Shown: positions 6,501 through 42,110, counted from the first letter of the stretch. The stretch: 64,000 nucleotides of DNA from a bacterium (GCA_043803945.1 JAZDJN010000104.1:70647-134646); one strand, 5' to 3'. Made by a program: numbers and translations. Notes: generated from the sequence alone by a model not told the origin.

Positions 6501-6823
6501 GCAGACTCCACAAATAGTAAAAGTTATCGAGCGAGAGTTACTGCTTGAGAGCAGAGGCAAGATAGGGAAAGGGTGGGTGAATTTCAAATTGAAACGAACC
6601 ATCATGCTTGATTCTAATTAGCACAATGCTATATTGCTTTCATCTTTTTAATAAATGCCATTCAACAATTGATCAGACAATAATTAACTAGGCATAGTCT
6701 TGACCAGCACTCATCAGAGAACTTGAAAAAAGGAATCACAGAATCAGAGAACGCAGGCGACGCGGTCATTCGTGCTCCCGACTCTGTTGTTAACTCCATA
6801 CGATTTTAAGGCCATACCATTCT

Positions 6824-12876: not shown

Positions 12877-12904
12877 TTGACTCTGAATGGCACAATGTTA
12901 TATT
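12877..12904 (+). promoter_or_regulatory. putative internal sigma70 promoter within the cassette array
   Basis: TTGACT-N16-TATATT with extended TGn. Confidence 0.45.
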
Positions 12905-12971
12905 GCTCTCACTTTTTAAGAAAATCCATTCAACCGTTGGCAAATAATTAGACAGCACACAGGAAAGAACT

Positions 12972-13364
12972 ATGGCATTTGAAGATAAACACCTTGATGT
13001 CTTACAGAACATTGAGTTCGCTATCGTGAGCGTGTATCACGAACACAACGATCTTAACGACTATGAAGTGATGAAGGCGTTGGATGCTTTAATCGATCAC
13101 TATCGCCTAGAATCGCATGGGCATACTTCCAAAGAAAATCATCTTCCGCCGAACGAAACTCTTGTCATTCAGAGAGTACAGGAGATGTGCGAACACAGGT
13201 TGGGTCGTAAAGATCTCGGCAGAATGAAAATGGATCCTTCAGGAGTTAAGACCGTAGAAGAAATTCTTTCATGCTTAAGAAAAATAAGGAAGTCAGTCGA
13301 TAGATGGAATAAACAAGGAGGTAAGCAAGGGTATTTACGATTTGTGAAAGAATTTGTCAAGTAA
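12972..13364 (+). CDS. hypothetical protein (130 aa)
   Basis: Clean ORF with AGGA RBS, followed by an attC remnant. Confidence 0.8.
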   Translation: MAFEDKHLDVLQNIEFAIVSVYHEHNDLNDYEVMKALDALIDHYRLESHGHTSKENHLPPNETLVIQRVQEMCEHRLGRKDLGRMKMDPSGVKTVEEILSCLRKIRKSVDRWNKQGGKQGYLRFVKEFVK

Positions 13365-13391: not shown

Positions 13392-13461
13392 GAATGAACT
13401 TGTTTCGTTTAGTACAAGTTGATTGTTTTCAACGGTGCAGCTTATGCGCCACCTGTTAGGC
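13392..13461 (+). repeat. attC right half (left half lost)
   Basis: AATGAACTTGTTTCGTT...GCAGCTTATGCGCCACCTGTTAGGC, similar to 15770-15837. Confidence 0.6.
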
Positions 13462-13572
13462 GGCGTACTATGCCAGCTCGTGAAGACCATGCGTTCAACA
13501 TTCGCACGTCGACAGTCGCTCGGCGAGGAGGTCACCATGGTATATAACATGTTCTAAAAGGAGGGTACCAAA

Positions 13573-13914
13573 ATGCCGGAATATCGGATTAAGGTTGCGC
13601 CCGTTACAGTAGCGTATGCTGACGGGGAGAAAAACAAGCTTGTAGTGGAGTTCGCCATCCCAGGAGCGCCAACAGATACCATCGATCTGAAGCTCCTGCC
13701 AGATAGCGTCCACCTGACAGCACCAGCAAGGGACATCGAGTATGTTTCAGCACTGGCTTTAGCTTGGCCGGTGAAACCTGACAAAGCCGAAGCGATCTAC
13801 GAAAACGGCCTGCTCCGAATTGAGGTGCCCTTCAAAGATCCGATGGAAGATGCTGTGAAGATCGCTATCAAAGCAGGTGGCGTGGAAATCAAGACCAAAG
13901 CAATCGAAGGCTGA
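13573..13914 (+). CDS. Hsp20/alpha-crystallin family small heat-shock protein
   Basis: VEFAIPG...AEAIYENGLLRIEVP; AAGGAGG RBS. Confidence 0.88.
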   Translation: MPEYRIKVAPVTVAYADGEKNKLVVEFAIPGAPTDTIDLKLLPDSVHLTAPARDIEYVSALALAWPVKPDKAEAIYENGLLRIEVPFKDPMEDAVKIAIKAGGVEIKTKAIEG

Positions 13915-14290
13915 TGACCCGTCAGTGGCTCCCCGCTATAAAGCAGCGGGGTAGGAAAGCTGATCCCGACAAGATCCGTCCCGATATGAGGCATCAGGAC
14001 AAGTCGGGGCAGGTCGAATGAGCACCCCGTAAAATGCACGGGGTAAATGCGTACGTTAAGCATGGCTGGCATAGGTGCAATGCAGGTTTGTAAGCCAGAG
14101 GTCGTTAGACTCCGATAGAGTCTAACGGACTCTATCGAGCTTATGAGCCATTGGCGAGACAAAGCTCGACTTCGTCGGCTTGGTTCGGATAGTACAATTT
14201 GTGAGCCAGAGGCGCAGGCGCAAAAGTTATCAGTGCGGCAGTCCCGAATAAAAACATTTCGGGATAAACTTTAGCCGCCATCCGTTATAC
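13915..14290 (+). repeat. attC site expanded by several inserted hairpins
   Basis: AAGCTGA..C L''-like box, GCAG..CTTTAGCC L'-like box and R' GTTATAC (14284-14290), interrupted by palindromes. Confidence 0.65.
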
Positions 14291-14373
14291 CGCTTGCGTT
14301 TTCAATGAAGCTATGTCCTAGCACGCAATGAACAGATGATTGATTTCTTACCACATTTTCAGGAATAACATAA

Positions 14374-15625: not shown

Positions 15626-15677
15626 TGCGGCAATTGCGTACTGTCGCAGAACATTTTTTTGCAATCGTGCGCAAGCG

Positions 15678-15837
15678 GTATAACCAGTCGCTGCTGCTGC
15701 TGACGGAATGAGCGTCGGTGCAATTTACATGGCGAGTAGAGGTTGAGTAGTTAAAGATAAAGTAGGTACAATGAACTTAGTTCGTTGGGTGCATGTTGCA
15801 AATATGCAGTGCCGCAGCTTAGCGCCCGTCGTTAGCC
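15678..15837 (+). repeat. attC site
   Basis: R'' GTATAAC, L'' GCTGCTGACGG, L' CCGCAGCTTAGC, R' GTTAGCC; the R'' region is a 15-bp perfect inverse of the upstream R' (14284-14298). Confidence 0.88.
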
Positions 15838-15851
15838 ATTGGAGGTGAGTA

Positions 15852-16895
15852 ATGCTTTTTGAGTGGAAAGACGCAGGGAAAGATACATCAGATGTCGAGA
15901 AGTTGAAAGAGGTGCGACTCGCTGATTCTGGTCTTCGAGAACGAGACCTCGAGAATCTCATCTCGAAGCGGATAGAGCAACTTGTTCGAACCGATCAACT
16001 CATGGTGATCATGCAGGAACGCTCTAGGCAAGAGGAGCCGGATATCCTTGCGTTAGACGAATCCGGTACCCTGTTCATCTTTGAGTTGAAACGGTGGGAA
16101 GGCAGGGGCGAAAATGTACTGCAGGTACTTCGCTATGGGCAAAAGTTTGGTCGATATGAATATGATCGGCTGAATTATTTCTATCAGTCGTATAGTAGAC
16201 ATCGCCAGCAGGAGGTGACTCTGAAGGAGGCTCATAGAGAGTACTTCGGGCTCTCAGCATCCCTCGAAGAGAACCTCTTTAATATATCTCAGCAGTTCGT
16301 GGTTGTTACAAATGGCCTTGACTATGATACCTGGGATGCGATTGCTTTTTGGAAAGCCAAGGGACTCAATATCTTTCCTCTGATCTACAGATTATTTCGT
16401 CTTTCGGATAAACTTCACATTGATTTCGATCCTTACGGGCCAGTGCCTGATGCACCAAAGGACTCAGAAAGTGGTCTTTATGTTGTAAATACGAACCTTA
16501 CATATGATCCAGATGCTTACCAAGAGATGGTTACCGAGAGGAAAGGTGCGGCCTACTACGACCGGAAATACGCAATTCAGAATATCAAGGCTGGCAACAG
16601 TGTTTGTCTATATCACGTCGGGGTTGGCGTTATTGGCATCGGCAAGGCAAAGACAGATTACCAAAAAAAGGATATCGGTTCAGATTTAGCAGCAGAGTAC
16701 TATGTCCCAATCGAATTCCAATACCTTGTCAATATCAACAGCGAGAATTGGACCAGCTTAGCAGTGCATGCTTGGGAGATAAACGCGAAATTTGGTACAA
16801 GTTATCGGTTTCGGCAGACTGTATTTCAACTACCTTACGAGTTTGCTGAATTCATTAAAGATAAATTCAAGGAGAAAGGTGTGAAGAATGGCTAA
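15852..16895 (+). CDS. NucS/EndoMS-like PD-(D/E)xK endonuclease with C-terminal EVE/PUA-like domain
   Basis: PDILALDESGTLFIFELKR...QVLRY; C-terminal IKAGNSVCLYHVGVGVIGIG; stop lies in the R'' box. Confidence 0.75.
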   Translation: MLFEWKDAGKDTSDVEKLKEVRLADSGLRERDLENLISKRIEQLVRTDQLMVIMQERSRQEEPDILALDESGTLFIFELKRWEGRGENVLQVLRYGQKFGRYEYDRLNYFYQSYSRHRQQEVTLKEAHREYFGLSASLEENLFNISQQFVVVTNGLDYDTWDAIAFWKAKGLNIFPLIYRLFRLSDKLHIDFDPYGPVPDAPKDSESGLYVVNTNLTYDPDAYQEMVTERKGAAYYDRKYAIQNIKAGNSVCLYHVGVGVIGIGKAKTDYQKKDIGSDLAAEYYVPIEFQYLVNINSENWTSLAVHAWEINAKFGTSYRFRQTVFQLPYEFAEFIKDKFKEKGVKNG

Positions 16896-16993
16896 CCCGC
16901 GCATGCACCACGACACACCTTCGCGAAAAAGATTGATCACGTTAAAGAGATATACAGCGCTCCGGTGTGCGGGTGATGCGCAGCCCGTTAGGC
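16890..16993 (+). repeat. attC site
   Basis: GGCTAAC-CCGCGCATGCACCACGAC...GCGGGTGATGCG-CAGCCC-GTTAGGC; AATGGCTAAC is the exact inverse of GTTAGCCATT at 15831. Confidence 0.92.
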
Positions 16994-18512: not shown

Positions 18513-18647
18513 CGAAGGCGGACAAGCCCGCCTACGTTACAAAGCAAACTCCGGCGGGTAGGCGTGCCTCGTTAAGCATGATTTGCAGAGGTGCAGCGGC
18601 ATTCGGTATGTTAACGAGTAATAACGATCCAAGAAAAGGTCAAACTC

Positions 18648-25225: not shown

Positions 25226-25409
25226 TCCCCGTCCCGACATGTCGAGACAATCGGCCTGCTTGCGTGACGAAGCAACTTCCGCCTGCACTTCGTTTCGGCG
25301 GACAGGTCGGCAGGCAGGGGATCTGGAAAACAGAAGATATATGATGCGAGACACTCGGCAAAAGCATTCCTGCCCGCCATTTTTTGATCCACTGGGGCAG
25401 GCGGGCGGG
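25226..25409. repeat. cluster of nested GC-rich hairpins
   Basis: GTCCCGACATGTCGAGAC; CCTGCTTGC...[TCCGCC...GGCGGA]...GCAGGCAGG; CCTGCCCGCC...GGCGGGCGGG. Confidence 0.65.
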
Positions 25410-25526
25410 TGAGACAATAAGGTACTTTTAGAACAACCTCTGTCCCGCATCGTTCAAAAGGAACATGCGGGACGATGAAGTCGAAGTGCAGCTCTATAGT
25501 TTTTTACTGATGAGTCACAAAAACAA

Positions 25527-41883: not shown

Positions 41884-42110
41884 GCCACAATGGACACTAA
41901 GGATGCGAAGAATAAAAAGAAAAAAGAGTAATGGAAATTTAAATTAATTCAACAGTTTTTCCTTTGCCTGCCCGACCTGCCTGCTGCAGGCAGGCGCAGG
42001 CGGGTGTCCTTCCCGCCAGACCGCATGGCGGGCTGGGGTGAACTTTTCAGCCAGAGGCTGATCCGCCAAAAAGAAGGCGGACAGGTGCGCCTTTGGTGCA
42101 GTGGTTTGAT
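41884..42110. repeat. inverted repeat pair with several nested hairpin insertions
   Basis: CCACAATGGACACTAAGG ... CCTTTG[..]TGTCCTT[..]...[..]AGTGG; inserts at 41967-42004, 42012-42032, ~42047-42099. Confidence 0.7.

Follow-up and report, generated by a model that had tools for sequence, protein, structure and literature searches.

A 382-nt attC site in a chromosomal cassette array, probably enlarged by palindromic REP-like insertions at structural hot spots

In a stretch of 64,000 nucleotides from a bacterial genome (GCA_043803945.1 JAZDJN010000104.1:70647-134646), referred to here as the window, positions 13915–14290 carry a series of small palindromes within what the initial annotation took to be a single attC, the recombination site of an integron gene cassette. 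The locus raises the questions of how these hairpins came to lie in the site, and whether they have fixed the cassette in place. We conclude, with a probability of about 0.72, that the region is one attC of a chromosomal cassette array which has grown by at least seven palindromic insertions resembling repetitive extragenic palindromic (REP) elements, placed at structural hot spots, and that the cassette is most likely fixed. The inserts amount to about 214 nt on a 162-nt core and they are small palindromic REP-like elements of three families.

As defined by paralogue alignment and profile, the site extends over 382 nt (13909–14290) and forms the 3' end of a cassette at 13456–14284, within an array that lies on the + strand of the window with no integrase gene nearby. 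The arrangement of a cassette was looked for around an attC at 13909–14290 and it was found: the cassette open reading frame (ORF) ends at 13914, the R' box lies at 14284–14290 and the next cassette starts within that R'. Moreover, the two cassettes that follow carry the integron cassette signature of a start complementary to R'', with 14284–14298 being the reverse complement of 15670–15684 over 15 nt, and 15831–15840, at the start of the following cassette, that of 16887–16896 over 10 nt. The R' of the colonised site, GTTATAC, is one position off the GTTRRRY consensus, and its R'' is decayed to a remnant at 13909–13915, which has lost the AAC triplet and carries seven extra bases relative to the family and to contig C117. 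Further along the window, at 18527–18577, a hairpin followed by TAGG stands directly before a GTTAAGC word and may be a degenerate attC that closes the array; attCs on contigs C31 and C42 contain a module like it.

Palindromes were found at all five of the places annotated, and they were folded as single-stranded DNA (ssDNA). Those at 13931–13951 (h1) and 14025–14047 (h3) form stems of 7 bp and 6 bp, respectively, each with a 7-nt loop (−7.3 kcal/mol and z −3.7 for h1; z −2.9 for h3), that at 14242–14268 (h5) has a 7-bp stem (z −2.2), and the element around 14103–14127 extends over 14101–14138 (h4) with a 10-bp stem (z −3.7). The palindrome at 13964–14009 (h2) is weak as a whole (z −0.9), and the nesting described for it is that of a degenerate hairpin at 13979–13999 enclosed by an outer stem of 6 bp. 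Comparison of filled and empty sites among paralogous attCs improved the boundaries of the inserts and assigned to them a 4-nt tail (Table 1). Thus delimited, the site holds five micro-hairpin units, h1, the outer and inner units of h2, h3 and h5, while two modules, at about 14098–14166 and at 14202–14222, constitute inserts beyond the five first noticed. The host hairpin of the former also occurs in copies which lack h4, and full copies of the GAGCC..GGC..GCGCA module, partly deleted at 14202–14222, are present in attCs on contig C37.

When h5 is deleted the sequence GCAG/CTT(T)AGCC is regained (the slash marking the junction), as it occurs at 15814–15823 and in the family consensus, in agreement with the proposal that its removal would restore an L' box resembling that at 15814. 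Deletion of h2 with its tail likewise restores AAGCTGA/(T)CGAATGAGC. The hairpins proved to be multi-copy: an exact duplicate of h5 lies on contig C35, in a 61-nt stretch of 98% identity, and at two or fewer mismatches there are three further copies of h1 and two of h4. The h2 and h3 regions have relatives of 80–84% identity on contigs C117, C101 and C52, the homologue of h2 on C117 being located at the same site with 82% identity. The h4 element is present in five copies in the genome, and three of the others (C31, C51 and C64) occupy the equivalent place in a similar flank. A GAGCC/GGCTC host hairpin of the type that bears h4 is also found at 42040–42100 of the window, where it holds a micro-hairpin plus CAGG (42062–42085) instead, and shortly upstream, at about 42010–42035, there is a REP hairpin of another kind.

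The attC family in question, with a length of 162 nt, is common to many Ignavibacteriota-type genomes and occurs in a short form and in a form about 40 nt longer. A first hunt with a regular expression for the L' and R' ends yielded three to four sites, and BLAST and profiles were used instead. A motif search of one genome per species placed the family at 55 loci, labelled as Ignavibacteriota, Ignavibacteriae or Bacteroidota metagenome-assembled genomes with one Zixiibacteriota. From these loci we took 26 insert-free sites of 154–201 nt, and 20 sites of the short form produced the 162-nt consensus with a mean column identity of 86%. In one relative, G078, the family flanks two intact integrase genes scoring 453 and 426 bits (cut-off 265) on contigs C2 and C11, from which arrays of at least 19 and at least 15 sites run away, and this identifies the members of the family as real integron sites.

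In the family stem, helices of six, six (AAGCTG with CAGCTT) and three pairs are separated in turn by a bulged C and a bulged A, and the R box pairs outside it. Among the 20 sequences 95.7% of cells are paired and six pairs are changed on both sides; this pairing was reached by 0/500 shuffles, and slid controls gave 16–46%. The bulged C and A of the top strand appear as G and T on the bottom strand, which is the one that recombines, and they are bases 16 and 23 from the outer R'' end. G16 and T23 are the extrahelical bases named for attCaadA7 in the accessible part of PMC5027507, and the bases and positions are the same in both, although the numbering rule of that paper may differ.

The in-silico deletion that the initial annotation had proposed as a check was performed with an nhmmer profile of the 26 insert-free attCs, all of which derive from other genomes. 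The raw site scored 24.4 bits (model 39–160), the site minus its four micro-hairpins with tails 63.7 bits and the site minus all five elements 65.4 bits, both of the latter over model positions 11–160. Control deletions of equal length, shifted by −9, −5, +5 or +9 nt, scored 13.4–29.0 bits with partial alignments, and the clean neighbouring attC at 15675–15837 scored 86.2 bits (model 3–160). Removal of the inserts clearly improves the attC match, as expected, and the single alignment of the edited form bears out the view that 13915–14290 is one attC with palindromes inserted. A covariance model of the family gave 95.7 bits over the full length of the neighbour and no match to the raw site, whose best local piece reached 8.4 bits with filters off; the edited sequence was scored by the sequence profile alone, and the covariance model was applied to the raw site and the neighbour.

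The same alignment bears on the possibility that the region comprises at least two cassettes, fused or devoid of an ORF, whose R'/R'' boxes would be GTTAGAC/GTCTAAC in h4 and GTTAAGC at 14055. Words resembling GTTRRRY or RYYYAAC do occur at 14055–14061, 14104–14110 and 14120–14126, but GTTAAGC falls in a block that is invariant in 20/20 clean attCs and the words in h4 are part of the 38-nt element found five times, in three other copies at the equivalent place in a similar flank. Since the edited sequence also gives only one end-to-end alignment, in which the 5' half and the 3' half each occur once, a fusion of cassettes appears extremely improbable.

The window sequence allows pairing in each of the three stem helices. 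For the raw site, the canonical helices have a predicted pairing probability of 0.00 on either strand. With h1, h2 and h5 removed it rises to 0.12–0.41 on the bottom strand, and to 0.81–0.84 for helices 1 and 2 on the top strand, while removal of any single insert is predicted to be insufficient to restore the canonical helices.

Four of the five palindromes belong to one family of micro-hairpins, which are 21–27 nt long with a YCCCG stem of about 7 bp, an A-rich loop of about 7 nt and a 3' tail YARR that takes the forms CAAG, CAGG, TAAA, TAGG and TAAG. A scan with strict geometry (CCCG, two pairs, a 7-nt loop, CGGG) revealed a sharp excess at a loop length of 7 nt. In the genome from which the window derives (the source genome) the strict motif gave 25 matches against none for the reversed motif, and a relaxed detector gave 173 against 22 in the reversed genome, or about 150 copies. 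Sorting divided the copies into several REP families, one with a classical GTAG head. A motif that did not require pairing, applied to the whole order, yielded 224 matches in 56/121 genomes and 16 for its reversed form; nearly all of the order-wide matches listed are true hairpins, and each rich genome has its own dominant variants.

Other hosts of the micro-hairpins in the source genome include another REP family, a long palindromic repeat and a tRNA fragment, and on contig C101 they are nested three deep inside a GTAG-type REP. Genome G014 carries tandem arrays of a 24-nt unit; on its contigs C36, C43, C58 and C82 hairpins with tails are arranged head to tail and repeat every 24, 32 or about 40 nt. 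When elements were deleted, the rejoined flanks folded at −8 kcal/mol or below in 39% of 172 sites, as compared with 8% of 600 positions chosen at random and 10% of 329 located 400 nt away. Base pairs spanning the deletion junction did not discriminate (5.8 vs 5.9 in controls), and only the folding energy of the flanks did so. The proposed preference of tiny elements for structured DNA is thereby supported, the targets being attCs, REPs, palindromes and each other; the accessible part of PMC3733652 already describes REPs inside other 'target' palindromes. GC-rich palindromes also cluster between genes at 25230–25480 of the window, with two matches to the relaxed detector (25278, and 25439 on the minus strand).

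Filled attC spots recur across many related soil and wetland bacteria. Among full-length attCs of other genomes 31/174 contain one or more inserts of at least 10 nt and 143/174 contain none, a count that omits the long central variant and in which the aligner splits some large inserts in two. The inserts are concentrated at model positions 18/19 (n=9), 24–28, 36–40 (n=12), 129–132 (n=3) and 139–145 (n=11), with the clusters at 36–40 and 139–145 each including one insert from the source genome; seven inserts of the latter cluster lie at CAG/CTT. The hot spots are both extrahelical bases, the position directly 3' of GAATGAGC, and CAG/CTT of the 3' arm, and h1, h2, h3 and h5 occupy four of the hot spots seen in other genomes. 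Since hmmalign could not thread the heavily colonised attCs W2, C42, C31 and C117 of the source genome, inserts there were mapped by eye.

Individual hot spots can be occupied by unrelated hairpins. For the position of h3, 61 pattern matches in other genomes comprised 55 empty sites and six that were filled by two unrelated types of hairpin. The first bulge is filled in 16/75 attC 5' halves of G078, by at least six hairpin sequences, each insert being exactly 24–25 nt and lying between GCT and CAAGCT, and in 3/53 of genome G121. Filled/empty comparisons show clean insertions of 23–27 nt with no target duplication, so that the inserts are not miniature inverted-repeat transposable elements in the classical sense of terminal inverted repeats plus target-site duplication. 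Reverse-oriented elements at model positions 144/145 begin with TTTA or CCTG, which indicates that the 4-nt tail belongs to the element and moves with the hairpin. The suggestion that inserts had entered both integrase-binding boxes stands in part: h1 and h2 are at the two bulges of L'' and h5 is in the middle of the L' arm, but h3 lies beyond the stem and the R boxes are free of hairpins.

Such precise positions, recurring across families of the order, might be expected if the hairpins were selected, functional parts of attC which adjust how the integrase binds, which strand is chosen or how fast excision proceeds, or which act on the cassette transcript as RNA terminators or stabilisers. Hairpins occur in arrays beside intact integrase genes (intI) in G078, compensatory changes keep stems paired (h3 against the C52 copy, h5 against the C42 copy), and within attC 5' arms the copies mostly point the same way with respect to the cassette ORF, all of which would fit a function. 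The hairpins are nevertheless dispensable, given that most attCs lack them (143/174 overall, with single sites empty in 55/61 and 59/75 cases); the same elements are found in REPs, a tRNA fragment, other palindromes and tandem arrays, unrelated hairpin sequences share one site, and their density is highest, at 9/13, in a genome without intact intI. We consider selection for function to be unlikely.

Table 1. Coordinates of the cassette array, of the family stem and of the inserts in the colonised attC
Feature	Position	Strand	Remarks
Gene cassette	13456-14284	+	begins at the crossover within the preceding R' (GTTAGGC, 13455-13461) and ends with the G of its own R'
R' boxes of the array	13455-13461, 14284-14290, 15831-15837, 16987-16993	+	
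Cassette ORF, 113 aa	13573-13914	+	
Neighbouring uncolonised attC of the same family	15675-15837	+	internal positive control; covariance model R1 95.7 bits over full length, nhmmer 86.2 bits
Stem helix 1, 5' arm AGTGGCT	13924-13930	+	pairs with 14273-14279; family stem backed by covariation
h1, micro-hairpin + TAGG	13931-13955	+	at the first bulged base; site also filled in other genomes
First bulged base	13956	+	site of h1
Stem helix 2, 5' arm AAGCTG (13957-13962), and second bulged base A (13963)	13957-13963	+	
h2, two nested micro-hairpins with tail CAGG (14010-14013)	13964-14013	+	outer arms 13964-13970 and 14003-14009; inner unit 13979-14003 with tail CAAG
Conserved GAATGAGC motif	14017-14024	+	unchanged in 20/20 seed attCs
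h3, micro-hairpin + TAAA	14025-14047	+	just beyond the stem; paralogue empty on C37, filled on C52
Conserved GTACGTTAAGCATGGC motif	14051-14066	+	invariant block of the seed alignment; its GTTAAGC is not an R' box
Extra module outside the family consensus, holding h4	about 14098-14166	+	GAGCC/GGCTC-type host hairpin and flank; left over after model position 85
h4, palindromic element of 38 nt	14101-14138	+	lies within the host hairpin; of a different family, with three GACTC/GAGTC arms in alternation
Second copy of the GAGCC..GGC..GCGCA module, partly deleted	14202-14222	+	extra to the consensus; left over after model position 122-124
3' stem arm: CGG (helix 3) and CAG (first half of CAGCTT)	14236-14241	+	
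h5, micro-hairpin + TAAA	14242-14268	+	splits CAG/CTT of the L' arm; hot spot of seven inserts, with several hairpins, at model position 141; identical copy on C35
Remaining 3' stem arm: CTT, extra T (14272), AGCCGCC	14269-14279	+	

What is observed is that hairpin and tail insert together and cleanly, in either orientation, that they nest and form tandem arrays, and that they favour foldable hosts, with hot spots at bulges and helix junctions. This behaviour is compatible with a mechanism in which the elements would insert into single-stranded, hairpin-forming DNA by a transposition-like process at the DNA level, and in which colonised attC modules would subsequently be spread and pooled by exchange among near-identical attCs. 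Loss of a working integrase would relax selection on the attCs and allow inserts to accumulate. In palindrome-associated transposable elements (PATEs), which derive from IS200/IS605 elements, movement is of the single-strand 'peel and paste' type, is based on hairpins and generates no target duplication; PATEs depend on a pair of dissimilar hairpin ends, and their insertion point lies 3' of a fixed tetra- or pentanucleotide. The features shared with PATEs (hairpins, ssDNA, no duplication) make an HUH/Y1 enzyme resembling the REP-associated tyrosine transposases (RAYTs) the leading, if unsupported, candidate for the mobiliser. The studied units depart from the miniature elements of IS200/IS605 in having one hairpin and variable left flanks (GCT, TGA, GAGC, GCAG and AGCA).

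Other candidates were rejected. An integron integrase above the cut-off is present in 50/121 genomes of the order and in 5/9 of the genomes rich in hairpins (at least five motif matches), while the hairpin-rich G041 has no intI match, and there is no association. The approximately 13 small copies of GIY-YIG genes each have their own flanking repeats, which are not the studied hairpins. Exposure of the top strand of the cassette as lagging-strand template was likewise unsupported, the GC skew of the + strand of the contig being negative in 12/13 bins of 10 kb. The source genome also carries 12 Y1_Tnp (RAYT-like) genes, on contigs C66, C62, C18, C16, C65, C85, C72 and C73 (L010–L016), most with their own REP family on both sides, and it is unusually rich in such REPtron-like units.

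Several observations weigh against the preferred reading of the site, some concerning how the inserts arose and others the state of the cassette. None of the 12 Y1 genes of the source genome is flanked by the studied hairpins, their flanks holding other repeats, and Y1 counts overlap between five hairpin-rich relatives (4–9) and five hairpin-free ones (1–13). Among the inserts examined there is neither a constant target sequence nor a target duplication, and insertion at unpaired bases fails to cover the most-used site, CAG/CTT, whose bases are paired in the fold. The hairpin of G041 is carried within a larger REP that has itself been amplified, the composite being present in at least nine copies. 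Every insert has a homologue at the same site in another attC, such that shared ancestry or gene conversion is possible: h1 in C117, C31 and C42, h2 in C117, h3 in C52 and genome G032, h4 in C31 and C64, and h5 in C35, C37 and C42. In G078, moreover, 8/16 filled first-bulge sites share one hairpin sequence and differ in their tails alone. Public sequencing runs contain at most 0.08 of the sampled words and no run holds the stretch; the contig sets of four runs cover the ORF and barely the attC, and no joints were reported.

The homologues at shared sites also speak for an account without transposition, in which hairpins would arise by local slippage or template switching and would spread by exchange, gene conversion or the making of cassettes from a template attC. 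Every insert has its same-site counterpart in the genome or in a relative, the shared hairpin with differing tails in G078 fits, and attCs that are about 86% identical per column favour exchange. It fails, however, to explain hairpins with tails outside attCs in unrelated hosts, including 15 copies in G041 where there is no intI match, or the occurrence of both orientations, of at least six hairpin sequences at one site of one genome (G078) and of head-to-tail tandem units of exactly 24 nt; nor can local slippage yield a common loop and tail sequence. We judge it quite unlikely as a full explanation, and the colonised site is probably best seen as a mosaic of pooled colonised modules, brought together by exchange of attCs, on top of primary insertions. 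In contig C69 of G041 we also observed a RAYT-like gene (L121), apparently frameshifted near its 3' end and followed directly by a REP, the loop of which contains two small hairpins, one of the studied family.

The proposal that the inserts lock the cassette in place remains a hypothesis. The predicted loss of the canonical stem is in its favour, but R'' is decayed as well, no intact intI was found in the source genome, and G078 tolerates one insert. None of 20 candidates for intI in the source genome exceeded the cut-off, a further search gave none at E≤1e-40, and only fragments were found, although with an assembly in 118 contigs this result is limited to the assembled sequence. One fragment (L027, contig C41, 1569–2315) is an integron integrase split within the conserved catalytic region by a GIY-YIG gene with 11-bp inverted repeats. 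With a decayed R'' and no intact intI, the cassette may have been immobile anyway. In the arrays beside the intact intI genes of G078, 3/19 and 2/15 attCs are colonised, which implies that one insert at a bulge is tolerated in an array that looks active; an insert, then, need not mean decay or locking. On the predicted folds and profile scores, the colonised site most likely no longer folds or scores as an attC and its cassette is fixed. The source genome has 9/13 attCs of the family colonised, against 31/174 elsewhere, and we read this as accumulation under relaxed selection.

Alternatively, the micro-hairpins could be distinct, structure-guided ssDNA elements, units of about 24 nt that join bulges and junctions of folded hairpins without duplication and act as a dial on the mobility of cassettes. 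The integrase would then tolerate, or even use, one 'extrahelical hairpin', whereas several would freeze the cassette. We hold this reading, taken as a whole, to be possible rather than probable. If it is correct, the filled sites would constitute an in vivo footprint of attC folding, with the bases flipped out by the integrase as the target, and a new interaction between selfish DNA and integrons.

The studied hairpins resemble the REPs and REP doublets (REPINs) of RAYT (TnpA-REP) systems in being palindromes in the range of 20–40 nt with a GC-rich foot, present in tens to hundreds of mostly extragenic copies with genome-specific variants. They differ from these in lacking the GTAG or CGTC tag, in place of which they have the YARR 3' tail, and in being shorter than most (21–27 nt), nested three deep, arranged in 24-nt tandem arrays and located at fixed positions of a recombination site. 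Moreover, unlike the REPs of REPtrons, their copies flank none of the 12 Y1 genes, and the G041 copy in the loop of a RAYT-adjacent REP is a passenger.

Mobile elements that colonise attCs can interfere with cassette mobility, and IS1111-attC insertion sequences are one such group. A second, the group IIC-attC introns, is described as mobile DNA colonising attC sites in the accessible part of PMC3001079. Both are kilobase-sized and autonomous and encode a DEDD transposase or a reverse transcriptase, respectively, in contrast to the studied elements, which are non-coding, 21–50 nt in length and located at several defined sites per attC. Length differences between attCs are attributed to the terminal structure in the accessible part of PMC5027507, whereas here the inserts are not confined to that structure and occupy the L-box stem, both extrahelical bases and the inner end of the stem, for a total of 382 nt. 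Searches of the full-text literature, supplementary files aside, brought up no description of attC sites with inserted small palindromes or REPs. We rate the inserts as REP-like elements whose pattern of targets is of interest to specialists in integrons.

Some wider consequences may be considered. The colonised site is invisible to the structure-aware covariance model, and cassette arrays in Ignavibacteriota-type genomes are probably under-counted; at 382 nt the site presumably also exceeds the usual attC size window. Inserts at the extrahelical bases and in the centre of the L box, which matter for integrase recognition and strand choice, provide natural mutants with which the tolerance of the integrase could be assessed. 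A 24-nt element that colonises hairpins, including attCs, REPs and itself, represents a poorly described layer of selfish DNA, the mechanism of which is relevant to the study and engineering of ssDNA transposition. Finally, accumulation of inserts without a working integrase suggests a route from mobile cassette to fixed chromosomal gene.

As to the remaining contents of the window, there was no match to Rfam at the gathering score, and the product of the cassette ORF at 13573–13914 (113 aa) matched no Pfam family. Relatives of this ORF, at 85–95% likeness, were detected on many contigs in four metagenome runs from wetland or peat. Two similar AT-rich stretches of about 65 nt are located at 6628–6700 and 12893–12960, upstream of a restriction-modification gene and of an ORF at 12972, respectively, and they may represent a repeated promoter or an array boundary.

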